A DNA stretch of 35,002 nt, taken from positions 1 to 35,002 of the IMG/VR virus record IMGVR_UViG_2534681936_000014. One strand, written 5' to 3'. This stretch comes from a virus. Taxonomy: Duplodnaviria > Heunggongvirae > Uroviricota > Caudoviricetes. Both the position numbers and the translations under genes were made by a program. This document shows positions 1 through 33,984 of the stretch, in pieces. The notes beneath the pieces were generated by a model, which searched no databases, had not been told where the DNA came from, and saw nothing but the letters and a program-made list of their open reading frames with translations. Numbering within the stretch: the stretch's first letter is position 1; each line of letters begins with the position of its first letter.

Positions 1-780
1 TTACTCTGCGTCTACCATGTCACATGCAAATTGAGTGTGTTTATATTCAGAATCAAATTTTGGTTCAATTACTTCAAGACGCATGTCACCTTTTTTGCTT
101 ACCCAGATGTTATAAGTGTTAACACGTCCAATAGTATCCTGTTTGGATTTACCTTCCATTGCGTTTGGATTCTCTTTAGATGGCTTGAGACTTGATTTAT
201 AAACATCATACTTGTCGGAATACACAAAAGATACCGGAACATCGTCTACCATTTTGATCTTAAGTTTACCGCCGTTATTATCAAAAGTTTTGTTTCCGTA
301 GAGTTTATCTTTTACAGCTTCTGTTTCCTCACCATCGATAACTTTCCATGTAAATTTTGTAGTACATGCGTAAATCGCGGTAACATTCAGTTTCTTTACT
401 TCTTCCTGTTTCGGTTGTTCTTCTTCAACCTTCGCAGAAGTCTCTGAATCGCTCTCTGACGCGGTTTCTTCTTTAGATAATACATTCATCAAGTTTTGGA
501 TTTGAGCGTTGTATACAGCCTCCAGTGGCTGAATCTGCCCGATATTGATCATTGTATCACGAACAGTTTTATTCCAGTTGCGTTGCTCTTGTTTCAGAGA
601 TGGATCAATCTTAACAGCTTTAACATATACTTCATGAAGTTTCGAATCCAGTGCGGAGATAGACTCGTTAGCACAAATAAACTTCTCTGATTTGGTAGTA
701 GCCTTAGTGCAATCAAAGGACGCAGCATCAGCACCGAAAGCAGTAGCAGAAAGCACGATAGCAGCGATAATGTTTTTCAT
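1..780 (-). CDS. Secreted/periplasmic protein, N-terminal domain resembling DUF1311 (LprI-like lysozyme-inhibitor fold)
   Basis: 259-aa ORF with ATG at 778-780 and AGAGG RBS; N-terminal signal peptide MKNIIAAIVLSATAFGADA; motif FDCTKA..E..IC...L..LD..L...Y...QR.W recalled as typical of DUF1311; C-terminal half unassigned. Confidence 0.55.
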   Translation of the reverse strand: MKNIIAAIVLSATAFGADAASFDCTKATTKSEKFICANESISALDSKLHEVYVKAVKIDPSLKQEQRNWNKTVRDTMINIGQIQPLEAVYNAQIQNLMNVLSKEETASESDSETSAKVEEEQPKQEEVKKLNVTAIYACTTKFTWKVIDGEETEAVKDKLYGNKTFDNNGGKLKIKMVDDVPVSFVYSDKYDVYKSSLKPSKENPNAMEGKSKQDTIGRVNTYNIWVSKKGDMRLEVIEPKFDSEYKHTQFACDMVDAE

Positions 781-1138
781 TTTATACCTCTTTTGGTATG
801 GACTGACTTTTAGATGCTTACTTTATTGATTTTTGATATTTTTTCAATTATTGGGATGAGATTTAGTAATTAAATTAAGAAATTAATGCTTGACAAATTA
901 AAAAGGTACTGTTCCACGGATGAAATAAAGGGAGTTTTCGGCACCCCGGTATTTGATGTGCGTGTGAGATTTTAAAACGTGATCACTTCACTCATGGCGC
1001 GGTCGCTACGCGACTATTAACCCACTTCCTAGCCCTTACCATTACTGGATCTTTCCCTTCGTTAGAATGCGATTTAGGCGCTTAGATTGTGCGTAAAACC
1101 AATAAATAAAATTACGCAAATTTAATGGAGGATAACCA

Positions 1139-2651: not shown

Positions 2652-3653
2652 TTAAGCTGCGTATGCGTAGGCGCTGTAGTTGGTGTCGTAGATAGCGTCA
2701 TGCAGTGCCATCTGTGCTTCGCGGATCTCGTCTTCGTTTACTTCAATCTCTTCTTGTTCTTCTTCGGTATCTTCCCAAGTGGTTTTGAATTTAGCCATAA
2801 AGTTATTGCGCAGGGATTCAAAGTTAGTAACAGGTGCGGATTTTTCTTCAACCGGAACTACTACCGGATCAGCTTCTTTCTGTTCTTCCTGTTCTACTTT
2901 TTCACCGTTACCCCAGCGATAGTTAAGGAGTTCTTCCAGTTCTTCATCAATGGATTTTTCTTCAACTGCTTCAACTTCAACCGCTGCTACTTCGAAAGTG
3001 GTTTCCTGCGCTGCCAGTTCAGCTTTCAGAGATGCGTTTTCAGCTTCCAGTTCAGCAATGCGTGCTTTCAGTGCTTCAACTTCGGAAGATTCAACCACTG
3101 CAACTTCTTCTTTAACTTCTTCAACTACTACCGGAGCAACTTCTTTCTGTGCTTCTTTTTTGCAGAAGAAGGAGGAAGTAACCTGTAATGCGTGGTTGTA
3201 GAAGGAACCGCCTTTAGCGGTGTTAACAGTACCAGAAACATCCTTTACAGTGGATTCAGTAGCAACAGTACGGAAGCGTTTTGCGACTTCCTGGGTCTCT
3301 ACGCCGTATTCGTTACGCTTGCTCTTGTGATGCATTACAGCACGGAAGCCGGAAGCAGTTTTAACAACAGCGAGATAGTAAGTTTCATCGGCTTTAACAG
3401 CACGAGCGAAGCAATAAACGGATTCACCTTCTACCAGTGTAGGTTTAACGTGACGTTTGTCGAAACGGTTAGTGATCTGCCATTCAGCACCGTCTTTGAT
3501 GCCAGCATTCTGACGCATTTCGGTCAGAGTCTTACCGGATACTACTTCAAAGGATTTGTCTTGTTTGCTTGCTTTACCTTCCATGACGGTAATGTTCAGT
3601 TTGCCGTTGGATTTAATAAACAGGTTGAAGGTGATGCGCTTAGAATTTTTCAT
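2652..3653 (-). CDS. Hypothetical early protein, 333 aa, globular N-terminal domain plus strongly acidic coiled-coil C-terminal half
   Basis: ATG at 3653-3651 with AGGAG RBS; codon usage typical of highly expressed genes (CGT, CTG, GGT); C-terminal half rich in E/V/A with coiled-coil segment ALKARIAELEAENASLKAEL; no family recognised. Confidence 0.65.
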   Translation of the reverse strand: MKNSKRITFNLFIKSNGKLNITVMEGKASKQDKSFEVVSGKTLTEMRQNAGIKDGAEWQITNRFDKRHVKPTLVEGESVYCFARAVKADETYYLAVVKTASGFRAVMHHKSKRNEYGVETQEVAKRFRTVATESTVKDVSGTVNTAKGGSFYNHALQVTSSFFCKKEAQKEVAPVVVEEVKEEVAVVESSEVEALKARIAELEAENASLKAELAAQETTFEVAAVEVEAVEEKSIDEELEELLNYRWGNGEKVEQEEQKEADPVVVPVEEKSAPVTNFESLRNNFMAKFKTTWEDTEEEQEEIEVNEDEIREAQMALHDAIYDTNYSAYAYAA

Positions 3654-14451: not shown

Positions 14452-14857
14452 TAATATGCCTAGACTGAAAATCAAACGCGCCTTGCAGGATATTATCGAA
14501 CAAGATTTAGGTCTGGCTTTAAACGTAGAACAAACTCAGCAAGGCTTTAGTGATGACGTGGTTTGTTGGATTACCGGAATGAATGAGACTTATACGCGTG
14601 TTCGTGGTGGTAATGCAATGCAAGCTGAATGCGTTATCGAAATGCAGTTATATTCTCAGATTCATGAAACGAAAATTCATGAGGGTATTTGCCAGATAAT
14701 CCAGATTCAGCCGGATAACCCACGTTTTAAAGATTTGGGCTTCGCTATTTCAGATATCACTCCAGTAGCTTCTAATACCGATTATGACGATGATTCTAGT
14801 GATGGGGGTATCGTTGGGACACTTAGCCTTAAATTTTCTTATGTAGCGCGTTTTTAA
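14435..14857 (+). CDS. Putative head-tail joining / tail completion protein (140 aa)
   Basis: ATG at 14435 with AGGGGG RBS, overlapping the upstream gene by 17 nt (the ORF-track start at 14354 lacks an RBS); positional assignment. Confidence 0.5.
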   Translation: MLATVNNMPRLKIKRALQDIIEQDLGLALNVEQTQQGFSDDVVCWITGMNETYTRVRGGNAMQAECVIEMQLYSQIHETKIHEGICQIIQIQPDNPRFKDLGFAISDITPVASNTDYDDDSSDGGIVGTLSLKFSYVARF

Positions 14858-15773: not shown

Positions 15774-18700
15774 ATGCAATCAATCCAATTTAAACGAACT
15801 AATGTTTCTGGCAAAAAACCAACGCCGGAACAATTACAGGTCGGTGAGGTAGCAATCAACCTTAAAGACCATGTTATTTTTACCAAAGACCGAGATCATG
15901 AAGTAGTTCAAATCTCTGTTTCTCCTGAAACTCACGCGGCACTAGAATCTAAAGTTGATGCTAACAAACAAGAATTGGATAGCACAATTGCAGTAAATGA
16001 CCGCAATATTCACGCTAAAGTAGATGAAATTAAACAAACTACTGATTCTACTATCGCAGCAAATCATGCAGAAATTAACAATAAAGTTGATGTAATTAAA
16101 CGCGAAACCGACGCGACAATCGAAGCTAATAAAAATAAAGCTGCTTCCGATCTTGCTGGTGTTAAAGCTGAATTGTCGGATACCATCAACGCTAATAAAA
16201 ATGCGGCTGCTGTAGCAACTCAGGAACTGGACACCCGCATCAATAAAAAAGTTGATGATATTAAATCCCGTACTGATGCAACCATCGCAAGCAATCACAA
16301 AGCAATCAATGACAAAGTTGATTTGATTAAGGCAGAAACTGACCGCACTATCGCAGCAAATCAAGCCTATGCGGAAAATCAGTTAACTGACACCTACAAT
16401 AACCTTACTGGTGTGATTGCAGCTAATAAGCAAGAGGCAGCGGATAGCGTCGCAGCATTAACCCGTGATGTTGAAGCCAAAAATACAGCAATTCATAGCA
16501 AAATTGACAACAACAAGGTTTACACTGATTCTGAATTGGCACGCTTAGAAAGCCGTATTGATGCAGCCGATGGATCTGCTGATGGCAAGTACATCAAAAA
16601 ACACGTAAACACTTATACTGATGGTTATTTGCTGTCTAAGACCGCAAACTATTTTGATGATCCAAATGCGCGTAATCTTGATTACTTTGGTGCATTCCGC
16701 ATGAATGACCTGGCGGGTCATATTGCAATGATCTTGCATGTTCCGCATCCATCTGGTGTTAATCATGCTCGTGGCTTTGAGTTCACTTATGGGTCTAATC
16801 CACATGCTACTGTAAGAACATACGGCTATGATGAATTAGGTAATTTGTCATATTCTCACCGCATGTATCATGAAGGCGATAAACCTACTCCGGCTGAAAT
16901 TGGCGCATATTCGAAAGCAGAAATTGACCGACTGTTCCAGAAGACGCTTAATTTTGGGATCGAGGGTGGTTGGTTTAAACTCGGTAGTTTAACACTGCCA
17001 CAGCAACACGGTCGTAGTGCTAAGATCCGCTTAGTTGGTGGTAACGGTTATAACGTCGGGATGAATGGACAAGCCAATATTATCGAATTGGTGATTCGAT
17101 GCGGCAACAATAGCCCGAAAGGTGTTGTATTCAATGCTTATTATAGCATCTGGTATCACGAACAACATTTTTGTGCAATTCCTACCGATGGTGATAATTA
17201 CGATCTTTACGCTTACTACGGTGCACATACAGGATTTGTTTTAGCAGAATATCAAGTTTCTTCCGGTGGTGTTTCTTTAAACCTGTTGGATACTCCTGAA
17301 TATCTGGGTGGTGAAAAACCTGTTGCAGATGAAATTTTTGATGCTCTTAACATTTCATCGTTCAATAACTTTAGCAACCGTGGGACGTTAAATTTTGCTG
17401 GAAACCATCAAGGCCAATATGACATTGAGCATATGAACGAACAACAAACTAACAGCAAAAAGATGTTGCGTCGCTTCCGTAGTTCTGCTCCTGCCACTAT
17501 CTGGCACGAAAGTGTTGATGACCAAAATTATCGTCTTGCTACTGGTTATGACGATGTAAACCAACAATTATTGCTTTCGGCTGCAACCGGGTTACATGTC
17601 AAGAGATTAACATTGGATGGCGGTGTTGGTAATGCCGGTATTGACATTCGTCGAGGACCAAACGAATCAAGCCATTTTAATTTTATGGATTATCGCACTG
17701 GTCAAGATGTTCGTAATGGCTGGTTTGGTTTTGGTGATTTGACGACCAAAGATTTTATTTGGTGGAACGATAACGGCCAAAACTCGATAAACCTGATTGA
17801 AGATGGCGAGTTGCATATTACTGGTGGTAAAGGCCAGAAAATTGTAATGAATAGCGAAGTTGCATTATCCGAAAATGCTCGTTTGGCTGTCAAAGGCGGT
17901 AACTATGGTTTGATATTACGCAATGATGGTTCTAGCTTCCATATTCTTACTACCGATTTAAAAGATTCTTTTGGTAATTGGAATAATCGCAGACCATTCA
18001 GTTATGATTTTGCGGACGGTGGATTATATTTAGGTGGTACTGAAACTGCTCGTTGTTTGCATCTTGGAATTGATGGTAGCACTCGTCTCGAAGACAACCT
18101 GTTCTTTAAAGCTGGTTCTCGTCAATCTATGGACTATATGGAACTCGTCCATTGGGGTGCAAGCAATACAGGTCGAAATAACGTTTTAAGTCTTCGTGAC
18201 TCAAAAGGATTTTTAGCCGAATTTGAACGTCTATGGGATAATACTACCAAAAACACCTTCTTCGGGAAAATGAAAATTAATCGTGGATCTGATGCAATTA
18301 TCATGAATGCCGAAAGTGGTGATTCGTCTGTATATTTGTTGGGTACGTGTGCTGACAACAACAACTGGTATATTGGTAAAGGCGGTGGTGATAATGGATT
18401 AGCGTTCTATAGCTATGCTACTAATGCCGCGATAAATCTTACGAACGCTGGGGATATTGCATTAAGTCCAAAAGGCGTCGAAATGGTTCATGTTAATAAC
18501 GCTCGATTATATGTTCATGGTGAACGTTGGACCGCTAGTCAACCAGGTGATTGGGGTAATCAGTGGCGAGTGGAAGCGCCAATATTCGTCGATCATGGCT
18601 ATGTTGGACAAGACTGTTATTATCCGATTGTTAAAGCAAGAAGTTTAATCACCAATCAAGGGTATACAACTGCCGTCGATTTTGGTATGCGTCGTATCCC

Positions 18701-19199
18701 TAACAATTGGGGACAAGCAATTATTCGTGTTGGATCTGCGGAAAACTCACCTGATAACGGACACCCTCAAGCTGTATTTGAGTTCCATCACGATGGGTTC
18801 TTTTACACGCCGGGTAACGGTAGCTTTAACGATGTGCATATTCGATCTGATGAACGTCTTAAGATCAACAAGGAAGAATTGGAAGAAGGTGCGCTGGATA
18901 AATTAAACAGCTTAACCGTATATTCCTACGATAAAGTTAAATCACTTTCTGATGATACAGTGGTTGGACGCGAATTAGGTGTCATTGCTCAAGATGTGGA
19001 AAAAGTTATGCCGGAAGCTGTGCACGTTTGCAGCGATGGAGATACCGAAAATCCAGGAGAAATTAAAACTATTTCTGTTTCTAGTATCAATGCTCTTTTC
19101 GTGAAAGCCTTTCAGGAATTAACGACTAAGTATGATGCGATGAACGAAGAGTTGAAAGCTGTTAAAGCTGAACTTGCGGCTATTAAATCCTGTAAATGA
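15774..19199 (+). CDS. Tail fiber protein with C-terminal S74-type intramolecular chaperone (self-cleaving) domain
   Basis: 1141 aa; N-terminal shaft built from about 22-aa repeats (KVDxIKxxTDxTIAAN); C-terminal region ...SDERLKINKEELEEGALDKLNSLTVYSYDKV...GVIAQDVEKVMPEAVH... matches the signature of endosialidase / T5 L-shaped-fiber chaperone domains from memory. Confidence 0.85.
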   Translation: MQSIQFKRTNVSGKKPTPEQLQVGEVAINLKDHVIFTKDRDHEVVQISVSPETHAALESKVDANKQELDSTIAVNDRNIHAKVDEIKQTTDSTIAANHAEINNKVDVIKRETDATIEANKNKAASDLAGVKAELSDTINANKNAAAVATQELDTRINKKVDDIKSRTDATIASNHKAINDKVDLIKAETDRTIAANQAYAENQLTDTYNNLTGVIAANKQEAADSVAALTRDVEAKNTAIHSKIDNNKVYTDSELARLESRIDAADGSADGKYIKKHVNTYTDGYLLSKTANYFDDPNARNLDYFGAFRMNDLAGHIAMILHVPHPSGVNHARGFEFTYGSNPHATVRTYGYDELGNLSYSHRMYHEGDKPTPAEIGAYSKAEIDRLFQKTLNFGIEGGWFKLGSLTLPQQHGRSAKIRLVGGNGYNVGMNGQANIIELVIRCGNNSPKGVVFNAYYSIWYHEQHFCAIPTDGDNYDLYAYYGAHTGFVLAEYQVSSGGVSLNLLDTPEYLGGEKPVADEIFDALNISSFNNFSNRGTLNFAGNHQGQYDIEHMNEQQTNSKKMLRRFRSSAPATIWHESVDDQNYRLATGYDDVNQQLLLSAATGLHVKRLTLDGGVGNAGIDIRRGPNESSHFNFMDYRTGQDVRNGWFGFGDLTTKDFIWWNDNGQNSINLIEDGELHITGGKGQKIVMNSEVALSENARLAVKGGNYGLILRNDGSSFHILTTDLKDSFGNWNNRRPFSYDFADGGLYLGGTETARCLHLGIDGSTRLEDNLFFKAGSRQSMDYMELVHWGASNTGRNNVLSLRDSKGFLAEFERLWDNTTKNTFFGKMKINRGSDAIIMNAESGDSSVYLLGTCADNNNWYIGKGGGDNGLAFYSYATNAAINLTNAGDIALSPKGVEMVHVNNARLYVHGERWTASQPGDWGNQWRVEAPIFVDHGYVGQDCYYPIVKARSLITNQGYTTAVDFGMRRIPNNWGQAIIRVGSAENSPDNGHPQAVFEFHHDGFFYTPGNGSFNDVHIRSDERLKINKEELEEGALDKLNSLTVYSYDKVKSLSDDTVVGRELGVIAQDVEKVMPEAVHVCSDGDTENPGEIKTISVSSINALFVKAFQELTTKYDAMNEELKAVKAELAAIKSCK
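15952..16380 (+). repeat. Intragenic tandem repeats, about 66-bp period, encoding the fiber shaft
   Basis: Successive units starting near 15952, 16018, 16084, 16249 and 16315 all begin AAAGTxGATG...ATTAAA...ACxGA. Confidence 0.6.
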
Positions 19200-24299: not shown

Positions 24300-25073
24300 A
24301 TGCGAAAATTCCATTACGTTTATCACACCACTATTAAATCTAATCGCTCTGGTAAAATCTATCATTACGTCGGAAAAAGAACAACTACAAATCTAGACGA
24401 TGGATATGTGGGGTCGGGTAAAGTTATTAAAATGATGAAGCGTAAAAATAAAGAATCAGAAACCCCGATATATGAATTTGAAGTTGTTCGCTCAAAATTG
24501 TTTGATACTGCCGAGGAAGCGTTTGAATGTGAAATTCTGTTAGTGGAGGCAGCACGCGAAAAATGGGGGCGTGGTGTATGTCTTAATATTGCTCCTGGTG
24601 GTGTCGGTGGTTTTGATGGTGGTGAACATCACCCACTGTACGGAAAGAAACATAAGCCAGAAACAATCGAGAAATTTAGAAAGAACAACGCAGGTGAAGG
24701 AAACCCGATGTTTGGACGGGTAAGCCCAAAACGAGGAAGGAAGATAACTAATCCAGAAACGTTAGCTAAAATGTCCGCTGCAATGAAAGGCGCTAATAAT
24801 CCTCGATACGGCGCAATAGTCACCGAAGAAACACGCGCAAGAATTAGTAAGGCTTTATCTGGTCGAAAGATTACCGATCCTGTAGAAAAGGCTAACAGAA
24901 CTAAAGCAATTAGGGAATCGAAAGGTCAAGCATGTTGGCAACATTACGATGAAATTCGTCGTGTGTGGATCGAAAACGGTAAGCCCGGCGCGGCAAGATT
25001 ACGAACAATCATGATTGGCTTAGGCCATCCAAAATATGATCTTCGTAGAATGTGCGAAGACTTCAAGAAATAA
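24300..25073 (+). CDS. GIY-YIG homing endonuclease with NUMOD3-like repeats
   Basis: 257 aa; N-terminal HYVYHT...GKIYHYVGKRTT...GYVGSGK and FECEIL align with the I-TevI catalytic-domain pattern (GIYQIKN...VYVGSA...FECSIL) from memory; three G-x-x-H/NP-x-[YF]G-x-x-x-x-x-E-T-x-x-K-[IM]S repeats (HPLYGKKHKPETIEKF, NPMFGRVSPKRG...PETLAKMSAAM, NPRYGAIVTEETRARISKAL). Confidence 0.8.
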   Translation: MRKFHYVYHTTIKSNRSGKIYHYVGKRTTTNLDDGYVGSGKVIKMMKRKNKESETPIYEFEVVRSKLFDTAEEAFECEILLVEAAREKWGRGVCLNIAPGGVGGFDGGEHHPLYGKKHKPETIEKFRKNNAGEGNPMFGRVSPKRGRKITNPETLAKMSAAMKGANNPRYGAIVTEETRARISKALSGRKITDPVEKANRTKAIRESKGQACWQHYDEIRRVWIENGKPGAARLRTIMIGLGHPKYDLRRMCEDFKK

Positions 25074-30939: not shown

Positions 30940-31293
30940 ATGTTAAGCAAACATTTTTCTCGCAAGGAATTTAAATGTAAATGCGGAAAATGTGATTATG
31001 ATACAATCGACGCTGAATTACTGGTAATTCTTGAGGATGTACGAGAGCACTTCGGTAAACCAGTGATTATTAACAGTGGCAACCGTTGCCCGACTCATAA
31101 CAAGAATGTAGGCGGGGCAGCCAATAGCTATCACGTTCGAGGCCGCGCGGCTGACATTGTTATCAAGGGTGTCTCACCTGATATTGTTCATGCTTATCTT
31201 GATGGGAAATATCCTACTCAATACGGCTTAGGAAAATATAAAACATTTACGCATATCGATTCCAGATCAAAAAAATCACGGTGGAATGGATAA
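30940..31293 (+). CDS. Endolysin, zinc metallopeptidase of the M15 family (L-alanyl-D-glutamate peptidase type)
   Basis: 117 aa; AAGGGGGTAA RBS; motif SGNRCPTHN...SYHVRGRAADI...H.D matches the His/Asp zinc-binding pattern of M15 peptidases such as the T5 endolysin, from memory. Confidence 0.7.
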   Translation: MLSKHFSRKEFKCKCGKCDYDTIDAELLVILEDVREHFGKPVIINSGNRCPTHNKNVGGAANSYHVRGRAADIVIKGVSPDIVHAYLDGKYPTQYGLGKYKTFTHIDSRSKKSRWNG

Positions 31294-31565: not shown

Positions 31566-31823
31566 CTATGATTTATTTTCTTGTTCTATGAAAATCTTTC
31601 TCACCTCATCAGAATAAATGTCTAGTGATTCCTCATAACATTTTCTGTATTCATCGTAATTACTGGTGGTCTTTTGACATAGCAATTTCAATGTCTTATG
31701 TGCTCCATCAATGAAAGCATCTTCTCTATAGGTTAGCGGTCTACGCATTTCTTGGTCTACGGTTGCCAATGCCAGGCAAGAATTCATAGATAAAATCAAA
31801 CCTAAAATCTTAATCATCTTCAT
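31566..31823 (-). CDS. Small secreted (possibly lipo-) protein, translationally coupled to the serine recombinase
   Basis: ATG at 31823 lies 4 nt after the recombinase TAA stop (ORF-track start 31838 is a TTG); signal peptide MKMIKILGLILSMNSCLALA; about 85 aa. Confidence 0.5.
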   Translation of the reverse strand: MKMIKILGLILSMNSCLALATVDQEMRRPLTYREDAFIDGAHKTLKLLCQKTTSNYDEYRKCYEESLDIYSDEVRKIFIEQENKS

Positions 31824-31827
31824 TAGC

Positions 31828-33507
31828 TTAAATTCCAAATTCCTGTAATGGACCTGGTATTTCTTCTTCTGGTTTCCAGTTCTTATCTGTCAGCATGTCT
31901 AAACATGGATGCAGAACAAGCCCGTTACTCTCCAGAATCTGCCTATCATTGATAGTCTTCAAATCAACGAAGATCCGGCCTTTCCTCGGTCCTCTTGAAT
32001 TTTCTATTACAACTCTCTGGGTCTTGCCATCGATGTATTCCAGTACAAACAAGTTTTTGTACTTGTCAATCCTGCTACACCCGATCCGTTTTAGAGCTTG
32101 CTTAATCTTAAACCGGACCTTAATGCGATCCTCGTTGTAAACATCTTCTAAATCAAATTCTGCGAGCTTCTCCCAGCCTTGAGAGTCAACAGAATACATT
32201 TCCTCTTCTGCCATCTTAATTTGATTGTAGAGTGTTTCACGCTCGCTATTGAGGGTAGTAATCTGATCGGCTAGCTCCTTCGTTGCTCCTGTCATAGCAG
32301 AAAGGGTAATCAGGTTATCAATCTTGCGTGATATTTCATCAATCTGTACTTTCAAAGCCGGAACCGGATTAGCCTTATCTTCAGCAATCCAGATTTTATC
32401 AGCCAGCAATTGCAATACAGCTTTCTCTAATTGGTCGCCGCGAAAACTCCAGTTTGTATGCACACATTCAATACGACTAGAGCGCATTGCATCGCATGAA
32501 TAACGATATTGGTTAGGCCGTCTGTTTGTTCCTTTCACCTTAACCATAGCGGAACCGCAATGTTCACATTTCAATAGACCAACACCACTAAGCAAGGGAA
32601 TAGGTTTAACTTCTTCTTTGTCTCCAAAGTTACATGCTCTAACACCAATGCTTTTCTTAAGGTGATAAAACTCAGCGTCATCTAGCACACGAGGATAATA
32701 ATCCTTTAACTCATACTTAACGCCATCTACAGAGATTTCCTTGATACCAATCAAAGCGCGGGTATGGAACAACCTTTCAATCATTGCCCGTGACCAGTTT
32801 GAATGCCTCTTGTGACTTGCGGCTGGTGGTGGTGTGTATGTCGCGTTAAGGTGATCCAGTATCTCGGCGGTTGACCGTCCATTCCTGCGTAATTCCACAA
32901 CTTCCTGAACAATAGGGAAGAAGACCGGATGAGGAAGCACATAACCAGATGTGGTATCAGTCCACCACATATTCTTTCCAATTTCCTCGATTGCAACAGC
33001 CGGATTTTGTGGATTTTCTTGATGAGCTTTAATCTTAATCAGTGCGCTTGAGTTAGTACGATTGCGCTTAGTCTGGCTTTCCTCATTACCACGGATGAAT
33101 AAAAGGATGGAGAACATCAGGTCCATCGGGTTAGCGGTAACAGTATCCAGCGAGTAGATCTTGTTATCCATGCCAGTAACAATGGTTATCCCCCTACGGA
33201 TGATTGAAAGGAATAACTCCTGCGCACTGACAATATCGGCACGGGATAAACGGTCCAAGTTTTCGATGAATAGCCAGCTACCAACAGGAACGGATCTACC
33301 TATTGCATCAAGGAAACGAGATAGCGCCCCTGTTTTGGAGTTAGCACCCTTAAACGCAGATACACCCAGATCCTGATAATCATTTACCAGTTCAAGGTCA
33401 TACTTTACCGCAATCTCTCTAGCCATCCTGATTTGTCGTTCATAACTCGAACCATCATTCTGACGCATAGACGAGAAACGAATATACGAATACAGTTTAG
33501 TTTTCAT
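31828..33507 (-). CDS. Large serine recombinase (resolvase-type catalytic domain, recombinase domain, zinc ribbon and coiled-coil C-terminal region)
   Basis: About 559 aa from ATG 33507; N-terminal YSYIRFSSMRQNDGSSYERQ with the catalytic Ser in the position typical of serine recombinases; Cys pairs (CEHCGS...CDAMRSSRIEC) and coiled-coil region downstream. Confidence 0.85.
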   Translation of the reverse strand: MKTKLYSYIRFSSMRQNDGSSYERQIRMAREIAVKYDLELVNDYQDLGVSAFKGANSKTGALSRFLDAIGRSVPVGSWLFIENLDRLSRADIVSAQELFLSIIRRGITIVTGMDNKIYSLDTVTANPMDLMFSILLFIRGNEESQTKRNRTNSSALIKIKAHQENPQNPAVAIEEIGKNMWWTDTTSGYVLPHPVFFPIVQEVVELRRNGRSTAEILDHLNATYTPPPAASHKRHSNWSRAMIERLFHTRALIGIKEISVDGVKYELKDYYPRVLDDAEFYHLKKSIGVRACNFGDKEEVKPIPLLSGVGLLKCEHCGSAMVKVKGTNRRPNQYRYSCDAMRSSRIECVHTNWSFRGDQLEKAVLQLLADKIWIAEDKANPVPALKVQIDEISRKIDNLITLSAMTGATKELADQITTLNSERETLYNQIKMAEEEMYSVDSQGWEKLAEFDLEDVYNEDRIKVRFKIKQALKRIGCSRIDKYKNLFVLEYIDGKTQRVVIENSRGPRKGRIFVDLKTINDRQILESNGLVLHPCLDMLTDKNWKPEEEIPGPLQEFGI

Positions 33508-33526
33508 ACCATTTCCAAACAAAAAC

Positions 33527-33570: not shown

Positions 33571-33984
33571 TTAAAGAATTTCACGGCAGCTAATCAGGGA
33601 ATAAGACGTATCACCTTTTTTAACATCAAATATAGGCGCGCCATCAACAGAATGCAGATACTTGATGTAGGATTTACCATCTTCGGAACCATAATATTCT
33701 TCTTTCTCGTTCTTATCTTCTTTCAATTTAGGGCTTTTGATTGTCTTATCATATACCGGATCGTTGAAAGCAAATTGACTATTATCATCATTCACGCGAA
33801 CTTTCACACCGATAAAACCACGATATTTTCCAGACGGTGCATGATAATAACGGTCGCCATCACGAAGATATTGTGTATCATCTCCTTTATGTTCGAAGTA
33901 GGAATTACACACATAATAGGTATTAGCATTTGCAGCACCAACCAAACCCAGAGCAAGAACAACACCAGCGATAATCTTTTTCAT
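33571..33984 (-). CDS. Secreted/periplasmic protein (137 aa), unknown function
   Basis: ATG at 33984 with AAGAGGAA RBS; signal peptide MKKIIAGVVLALGLVGAANA. Confidence 0.6.
   Translation of the reverse strand: MKKIIAGVVLALGLVGAANANTYYVCNSYFEHKGDDTQYLRDGDRYYHAPSGKYRGFIGVKVRVNDDNSQFAFNDPVYDKTIKSPKLKEDKNEKEEYYGSEDGKSYIKYLHSVDGAPIFDVKKGDTSYSLISCREIL

Follow-up and report, generated by a model that had tools for sequence, protein, structure and literature searches.

A putative exported LprI-domain protein with a polymorphic barrel, shared by an Escherichia coli prophage and RB49-like phages

The stretch of DNA considered here, IMG/VR virus record IMGVR_UViG_2534681936_000014 over 35,002 nucleotides (the window), corresponds nearly exactly to one whole prophage of about 35.3 kb which, from the annotation of its flanks, lies in the antitoxin gene hicB. 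The gene at one end of the window (1..780, minus strand) encodes a protein predicted to be exported, in which a helical LprI domain (formerly DUF1311) is followed by a beta-barrel; it is referred to below as the LprI-barrel protein. Sequence comparisons indicate that the gene was captured from a virulent RB49-like Krischvirus, with a piece of the neighbouring gene retained as a scar, and that the temperate phage has re-sampled Krischvirus barrel alleles at least three times. This structural and evolutionary description is well supported. As to function, the best explanation overall, offered tentatively, is that the protein serves as a periplasmic envelope-protection or superinfection-exclusion factor, and the functional part of that reading, taken alone, has roughly one chance in three. 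A preliminary description made from the window's letters had rightly recognised a phage-encoded, secreted, DUF1311-like protein, and that label is already in the databases and hence not new; it missed the second domain, the polymorphism of that domain and the Krischvirus origin. What goes beyond existing annotation is thus the two-domain periplasmic protein with its polymorphic barrel, the capture from Krischvirus and the repeated re-sampling.

Architecture of the LprI-barrel protein

The list of open reading frames (ORFs) for the window places the start codon of this gene, ATG, at 778-780 and the stop codon, TAA, at 3-1, for 259 codons. The features of the gene and its product are as follows.

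1..780, minus strand: LprI-barrel gene, a complete coding sequence (CDS) of 259 aa with its stop codon at 1-3 (WP_000789334.1), for a secreted two-domain protein
820..847, minus strand: sigma-70-like promoter candidate TTGAAA-16-TAAAGT, pointing into the LprI gene, 9 of 12 consensus positions matched
787..792, minus strand: Shine-Dalgarno motif AAGAGG (coding strand), 6 nt 5' of the ATG, read from the sequence
724..780, minus strand: predicted signal peptide MKNIIAAIVLSATAFGADA, aa 1-19, with putative signal peptidase I (SPase I) cleavage after A19 and no lipobox
466..723, minus strand: LprI/DUF1311 helical domain, aa 20-105, with invariant Cys24 and Cys36, delimited from PF07007 and AlphaFold2 (AF2)
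391..465, minus strand: acidic linker ETASESDSETSAKVEEEQPKQEEVKK, aa 106-130, predicted to be disordered, its length differing between alleles
4..390, minus strand: polymorphic C-terminal barrel, aa 131-259, an 8-stranded antiparallel beta-barrel in the AF2 model, forming a hyperdivergent cassette

The RefSeq entry for the identical CDS, produced by the Prokaryotic Genome Annotation Pipeline (PGAP), is WP_000789334.1, 'lysozyme inhibitor LprI family protein'. The RB49 orthologue bears a similar name in UniProt, and PHROG 14799 matches the protein over its full length (E=3.7e-115). The name calls for caution, having been spread by annotation pipelines without evidence for the LprI domain.

The N-terminus consists of MKNIIAAIVLSATAFGADA followed, across the presumed cleavage site, by ASFDC, and displays a basic n-region (K2), a hydrophobic core of about 14 residues and an A-x-A motif at -3/-1. 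This signal segment is invariant across all homologues in the alignment, and residues 1-18 have a predicted local distance difference test score (pLDDT) below 50 in the AlphaFold model, as is expected of a cleaved leader. No lipobox can be read at the first cysteine, where residues -3 to +1 are S-F-D-C. Given these Sec/SPase I features, which agree with the signal peptide postulated earlier, we infer Sec-type export of a non-lipidated, periplasmic protein.

The DUF1311 similarity that had been proposed for the N-terminal part also holds in a profile search. Pfam LprI (PF07007) aligns with aa 24-76 and scores 26.1 bits (E=1.2e-5), above its gathering cut-off of 22, a resemblance that, as sequence matches go, lies far beyond chance, and the same profile matches 20 of the 21 members of the LprI-barrel family. 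The alignment covers profile positions 1-71 of 106, and because only the first ~70 positions align, the C-terminal part of the canonical LprI domain appears to be divergent in this protein. AF2 places helices at residues 30-37, 39-58, 62-80 and 83-105 (pLDDT 78-88), after which linker residues 106-129 fall below a pLDDT of 50 and coincide with indels in the homologue alignment. The family defined by the combination with the barrel is small, with 21 clusters among 5.8 billion proteins. LprI-domain proteins as such, whose occurrence in a phage had been called unexpected, prove to be ordinary: such genes are present in 115 phage records, including T4-like phages of Klebsiella and Aeromonas as well as Krischvirus, secreted DUF1311 proteins are common in T4-like phages, and a weak DUF1311 match had been recorded for the RB49 copy as early as 2006 (PMC1524935).

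Modelled alone with AF2, the barrel has 8 antiparallel strands, with a pLDDT of 91.4 and a predicted template modelling (pTM) score of 0.84. Its invariant residues are Cys139 in the first strand, Cys253 in the last strand and Gly150, and a disulfide between the two cysteines probably holds the barrel closed like a clamp. The C-domain, searched at E up to 10, and all 21 members, searched against Pfam, gave no family for it, and an NCBIfam search returned nothing. A phmmer search of the barrel against 1.84e9 representatives gave one true hit (P0005) and no relative outside the LprI-barrel gene family; two other candidates, P0023 and P0024, were discarded as repeat proteins matching by composition. 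Among solved structures no sequence relatives of the protein were found, the profile matches being spurious (3l39, E=0.026). At the level of fold, matches are weak: the top 50 from Foldseek in the PDB include the fHbp C-terminal barrel, TbpB, lipocalins and fatty acid-binding proteins, with template modelling (TM) scores of at most 0.49 and a best E of 6e-3. Among predicted viral structures the RB49 orthologue scores a TM of 0.74, followed by a few small uncharacterised phage proteins at 0.5-0.6, one of them a protein of Erwinia phage Kwan named 'lipoprotein'. The modelled barrel would rank as a new, highly polymorphic domain.

Like LprI of Mycobacterium tuberculosis (Rv1541c), the protein is of exported type, with DUF1311/LprI on its N-terminal side and a small beta-barrel after it. 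The M. tuberculosis protein combines DUF1311 with an MliC domain that is reported to be sufficient for lysozyme resistance (PMC7933661). The parallel in layout (signal peptide, DUF1311, 8-stranded barrel), the above-threshold Pfam match and a host strain that is an O55:H7 enteropathogen all speak for a true lysozyme inhibitor, which, acting in the periplasm, would bind and inhibit c-type lysozymes of animals or muramidases of phages and make lysogens lysozyme-tolerant, a form of lysogenic conversion bearing on virulence. Such a function is nevertheless improbable. Inhibition by LprI is credited to its MliC domain, and ScwA, which has only an LprI domain, did not protect against lysozyme (PMC7933661). 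Identity of the present barrel with MliC (PF09864) is not supported, there being no Pfam hit with the C-domain at E up to 10 or with the 21 members at E up to 5, and neither MliC nor PliC occurs among the top 50 PDB folds matched by the barrel, itself 8-stranded. Unlike M. tuberculosis LprI, which is a lipoprotein, and unlike MliC-type inhibitors, the LprI-barrel protein has no lipobox and no lipoprotein anchor. Its barrel, moreover, is polymorphic to an extreme that would be unexpected against a conserved enzyme target, and a phage with a short lytic cycle gains little by blocking animal lysozyme. The 'lysozyme-inhibitor fold' of the preliminary description goes back to the Pfam name alone.

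Krischvirus origin and exchange of the barrel cassette

Of the whole window, compared by megablast with 50,697 phage records, only nt 400-786 and the distal tail-fibre region proved to have close relatives, in both cases RB49-like Krischviruses. Krischviruses are virulent T4-like phages. The segment at nt 400-786, which holds the signal peptide, LprI domain and linker, is 95-97% identical to 59 Krischvirus records, and the identity breaks off at two points, 6 nt 5' of the ATG and where the barrel begins. The promoter candidate at 820..847 is therefore absent from the shared segment, as Krischvirus homology stops at nt 786. The RB49 orthologue, RB49p262, belongs to an early-gene block, where it lies between holin t and gene 52, 2.3 kb from the former, and is preceded by a sigma-70-like site of its own, TTGACA-17-TAAGAT. 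The gene that follows it in Krischvirus is RB49p261, and a trace of that gene is found beside the prophage copy as well.

window -88..-8, minus strand, outside the window: remnant ORF MMQFNSMKITQKWWDAMKANHQNDIN, 26 codons, directly 3' of the LprI stop codon, matching the start of RB49p261

This 26-codon ORF, beginning MMQFNSMKITQKWWDAM, is kept downstream of the stop codon in two of the prophage alleles (A and B, below). That the prophage retains the start of RB49p261 next to the LprI gene indicates transfer from Krischvirus to prophage; the gene was captured from a virulent RB49-like Krischvirus, the RB49p261 remnant being the scar of that capture. The case offers a clean and datable acquisition, in which a temperate phage took a gene from a virulent T4-like phage and kept a scar of the neighbouring gene.

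The polymorphism is confined to one part of the gene. Over 20 clusters the median pairwise identity is 0.98 for the N part and 0.29 for the barrel, and at 50% identity the barrels of these clusters fall into six classes. The 26 prophage copies represent three barrel alleles, A (the window type) in 12 genomes, B in 8 and C in 6. In a sliding-window comparison of alleles A and B, identity is 93-100% in both flanks and falls to 25-55% over nt about -25 to 400; allele C has the same drop, with divergence reaching about 200 bp further downstream. The same divergent island is present within Krischvirus genomes that are otherwise 93-100% identical to one another. There, the hypervariable island does not stop at the barrel and takes in the greater part of p261, the 95-aa gene next downstream. 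Co-variation of barrel and p261 was considered and dismissed, a metagenomic Krischvirus having an RB49-like p261 together with a window-type barrel.

Rates of substitution separate the two parts in the same way. The N part has a synonymous divergence (dS) of 0.09-0.26 and a ratio of nonsynonymous to synonymous divergence (dN/dS) of at most 0.15, and between barrel classes dS is saturated at 1.2-2.4, apart from one pair, RB49 and JSE, at 0.87. Given this saturation, and dN/dS below 1, the barrels are old alleles recombined into young flanks rather than the products of recent sweeps. Recent positive selection in the barrel was rejected on the same figures, dS being saturated in almost every between-class pair. 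About 20 barrel positions are nonetheless conserved across four classes, among them W145, D149, G150, F185, Y187, D189, K195, D215, R234 and E236.

The distribution of alleles crosses the boundary between temperate and lytic phages. The closest relative of allele A is a 174.8-kb metagenomic Krischvirus contig with RB49 synteny (81% over 848 nt), the counterpart of allele C is in phage JSE, and allele B falls in a barrel class (P0008-P0014) whose other members carry Krischvirus-type N-terminal markers. These markers, D18/T25/S102 in prophages and N18/A25/P102 in Krischviruses, follow phage lineage, while the barrels cluster by allele across both lineages. Since N parts and barrels thus group differently, the sequences point to repeated exchange of barrel alleles between lytic and temperate phages by intragenic recombination, and to at least three occasions on which the temperate phage re-sampled Krischvirus barrels. 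The likely homology arms are the conserved N-terminal 380 nt on one side and the p262/p261 junction, of some 60-80 nt, on the other, so that the RB49p261 remnant probably doubles as the downstream arm for cassette exchange. Capture was thereby followed by repeated swapping of one domain between lytic and temperate lifestyles. A diversity-generating retroelement is not indicated, since no reverse transcriptase is annotated in the prophage and the domain diverges along its entire length, with indels and with saturation at synonymous sites.

The second piece shared with Krischviruses belongs to the tail fibre (15774-19199, plus strand; 1141 aa), the distal third of which has 81-89% DNA identity to gp37, the distal subunit of the long tail fibre, of Krischvirus and other T4-like phages. 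That the prophage shares with Krischviruses both the LprI gene and this distal region (17370-19022), and that both segments lie in the same variable neighbourhood in Krischvirus, raises the idea that the barrel blocks the phage's own tail-fibre receptor from the periplasmic side, as T5 Llp blocks FhuA, with the allele tracking fibre specificity. A phage protein named 'lipoprotein' among the nearest viral fold neighbours beyond RB49 would fit such a role. Comparison of sister prophages and of Krischviruses, however, found no linkage between barrel allele and fibre tip: prophage EC416, which carries allele B, has the window's fibre (95.7% over full length), several allele-A prophages have other fibre tips, and Krischviruses with a window-like tip carry the RB49-type barrel. 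The LprI-barrel protein, furthermore, is not a lipoprotein, and blocking of the receptor is a very remote prospect.

Accessory position and possible function

The chromosomes of two E. coli strains, FDAARGOS_946 and O55:H7 DEC5A, match the first 3 kb of the window at 100% identity. The 5' part of hicB stops some 250 bp before position 1 and its 3' part restarts 37 bp right of 35002, which makes the LprI gene the outermost prophage gene at the attL end, about 250 bp from truncated hicB and reading away from terS toward the junction. It occurs in 26 of 5426 complete E. coli genomes, always at this position, and in related prophages, in hicB or ycdX, an unrelated 101-aa cytoplasmic protein fills the same slot. 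The insertion in ycdX rather than hicB was observed in a sister prophage. A terminator-like hairpin lies about 190 bp downstream of the LprI gene, beyond the window edge. Its outermost position, promoter- and terminator-like sites of its own and the fact that related prophages differ in having it mark the gene as accessory cargo, a moron. In these respects it resembles the moron and exclusion genes bor and lom of lambda, cor of phi80 and llp of T5, which likewise encode accessory envelope proteins at prophage ends; it differs in showing no homology to any of them and in that its product is neither a lipoprotein nor an outer-membrane protein.

What an exported DUF1311 domain may do is suggested by its bacterial relatives. 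The LprI-domain protein ScwA has been located experimentally in the periplasm (PMC7933661). In the O157/O55 lineage the DUF1311 protein Etsi4 rescues cells from Etse4, a periplasmic toxin that targets the cell wall (PMC12981562), and predicted DUF1311 immunities adjoin lysozyme-like or transglycosylase effectors of type VI secretion systems (T6SS) (PMC9796082, PMC8867033). Because DUF1311 proteins neutralise or adjoin cell-wall-targeting toxins, it is plausible that the domain binds proteins that cleave peptidoglycan. T6SS immunities of this kind share with the LprI-barrel protein a signal peptide and DUF1311, and act in the periplasm against cell-wall-targeting proteins. They differ from it in being single-domain proteins of ~110-150 aa encoded beside their effectors, the LprI-barrel protein having an extra barrel and residing in phage genomes with no effector neighbour.

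These likenesses allow the protein to be seen as an orphan immunity against the cell-wall-degrading toxins of competitors, T6SS effectors or bacteriocins, carried by the prophage to the benefit of its host. Signal-peptide DUF1311 proteins do act as cognate or orphan immunities to periplasmic peptidoglycan T6SS effectors, Etsi4 of the O157/O55 lineage included, polymorphic immunity domains are typical of effector-immunity systems, and the gene is in a moron position. An orphan immunity is still unlikely, given that no effector gene adjoins it: the neighbours in the prophage are truncated hicB, with the attachment (att) site, and terS, and those in RB49 are small early genes. The home of the gene is the early region of virulent phages, for which it is hard to see a gain from immunity to bacterial toxins. 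Known immunities, moreover, are defined by their DUF1311 domain, while in this protein the polymorphism resides in the barrel.

A phage precedent closer to exclusion is T4 Spackle (gp61.3), which is made early, is secreted, inhibits the gp5 tail lysozyme and confers exclusion of superinfecting phage (PMC7677548, PMC7650644). Like Spackle, the LprI-barrel protein would be an exported, disulfide-containing (as predicted here) periplasmic protein of a T4-like phage, and its RB49 orthologue lies in the early-gene block, Spackle being an early gene product. Unlike it, Spackle is a single helical domain of 75 residues that is not polymorphic in that way. Homology was rejected, as BLASTP of T4 Sp against the N-domain gave no hit and tblastn of T4 Sp against the 161.5 kb of RB49 plus the window gave a best E of 0.059, inside gene 41; any likeness would be one of function. 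RB49 has the gp5 tail lysozyme and rI, no Spackle was found in it by that search, and no imm is annotated.

Taken together, the DUF1311 links, the early context in RB49, where Spackle was not detected, and the moron position in the prophage are the grounds for preferring envelope protection or superinfection exclusion, and among the functional suggestions of the preliminary description exclusion is the most plausible. The protein would be active in the periplasm of the infected or lysogenic cell, where the conserved LprI domain might supply a common activity or a means of docking; its partner could be a peptidoglycan hydrolase, for instance the tail lysozyme that an incoming phage brings along, which is what T4 Spackle inhibits. 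The variable barrel would set or evade specificity. In a lysogen the gene may be expressed from its own promoter and could shield the cell from Krischvirus-type phages, the source of the gene.

Several observations weigh against envelope protection or exclusion. Inhibition of lysozyme by the LprI domain as such lacks experimental backing, and ScwA did not protect against the enzyme (PMC7933661). In Klebsiella T4-like phages, Spackle and a short LprI protein occur side by side in one genome (record PP660556.1), from which it follows that LprI proteins are not simple Spackle substitutes. A conserved enzyme target such as gp5 would by itself leave barrel differences of more than 70% unexplained. 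Barrel dN/dS is 0.15-0.81, that is, below 1 and at saturation, so that the sequences bear no direct arms-race signature, and variability is equal in strands and loops. PADLOC has no match for the protein. Finally, the promoter and terminator matches, at the LprI gene and at the RB49p262 site, are no commoner than in shuffled sequence.

Exclusion could be taken further, to an allele-specific module traded between virulent and temperate phages. The Krischvirus would then use it early to shut out particular types of competitor, and the hicB prophage would have captured current Krischvirus alleles time and again through the conserved flanks, expressing them so as to vaccinate its host against those lytic phages. 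On this scheme frequency-dependent selection would keep the barrel classes as specificity types, and the barrel itself would be a new fold for recognition in the periplasm. We regard this fuller scheme as rather unlikely. Should the protein indeed be an exclusion or envelope-protection factor, its at least six barrel classes would constitute a specificity panel for studying how incoming phage is blocked at the periplasm by phages and lysogens, and they could help to predict the resistance of lysogens to RB49-like phages.

A last group of possibilities turns on host peptidoglycan enzymes or the phage's own lysis. ScwA, a periplasmic LprI-domain protein, controls lytic transglycosylase levels (it raises MltD), and its overproduction leads to lysis (PMC7933661). 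By analogy, and with the Krischvirus copy lying 2.3 kb from holin t, the LprI-barrel protein might regulate host peptidoglycan enzymes or the lysis pathway, in the manner of ScwA or as an antiholin or lysis-timing factor. The likeness to Salmonella ScwA includes an LprI domain and no MliC, ScwA being soluble and periplasmic, with functionally important disulfides (PMC7933661). ScwA differs in being all-helical and chromosomal with its LprI domain at the C-terminus, and no relationship is detectable beyond the shared Pfam domain. Such regulation is improbable as well: RB49 already has rI, the lysis genes of the prophage (29.4-31.3 kb) form a separate transcription unit at the opposite end, 30 kb away, and the polymorphism of the barrel would be left unexplained. 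Protection against the phage's own lytic enzyme, suggested earlier, is unlikely in view of the type of endolysin involved.

30940-31293: M15-type peptidase endolysin (prophage annotation)

This protein and RB49p102 are both small endolysins of the M15 type (D-Ala-D-Ala carboxypeptidase family) rather than lysozymes of the T4 e type. Since both endolysins are peptidases, not muramidases (PMC1524935), an inhibitor of the phage's own endolysin was rejected.

Other features of the prophage

The annotated genes of the prophage include terS, terL, portal, a protease-capsid fusion, the long tail fibre, tail tube, tape measure and a tail-tip protein. No replication or repressor gene is named in RefSeq product names or in partial PHROG scans. 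Two further small secreted proteins had been proposed in the window, and both ORFs exist, on either side of a recombinase gene.

33571..33984, minus strand: second secreted protein, 137 aa, with a signal peptide (…LVGAANA, cleaved before N) and Cys26/Cys133, near attR; annotated as a hypothetical protein
31828-33522, minus strand: large serine recombinase (prophage annotation)
31566..31823, minus strand: third small ORF, 85 aa, with a signal-like N-terminus (…SCLALA, followed by T), 4 nt downstream of the recombinase gene and absent from PGAP

The signal peptide is clear in the first of the two small proteins, and in the other the N-terminus is signal-like. The 31566-31823 ORF has no Pfam or PHROG family. 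The 33571-33984 protein has six homologue clusters only, in E. coli and Salmonella, and was considered as a possible paralogue of the barrel. BLASTP aligns it with the window-type barrel at 27% over 122 aa (E=1e-4), and the Smith-Waterman score gives a shuffle z of 5.4 (2 of 5000 shuffles reach it). The hidden Markov model of the barrel scores the protein at 7.7 bits, a value reached by 8 of 2000 shuffles, and profile-profile comparison with the six homologues gives a probability below 1%, so that paralogy is not established.

No Rfam families were found in the window. ARAGORN calls a 91-nt tRNA-Glu(ttc) at 14622-14712 (minus strand), within a plus-strand coding region in which Rfam reports nothing, and the length and position of the call suggest a false positive. 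In the 333-aa product of the gene at 2652-3653 (minus strand), the C-terminal half is long, acidic and coiled-coil-like; neither PHROG nor PADLOC gives a match to this protein, which is annotated in sister prophages as 'coiled-coil' or 'bZIP'. The capsid protein is without close relatives among cultured phages, its best match there having 42.6% identity. The tail module also includes, flanked by a DUF2163 gene and the tail-tip gene, a gene (24300-25073, plus strand) for a DNA-binding protein with a NUMOD3 domain, of homing-endonuclease-like type.

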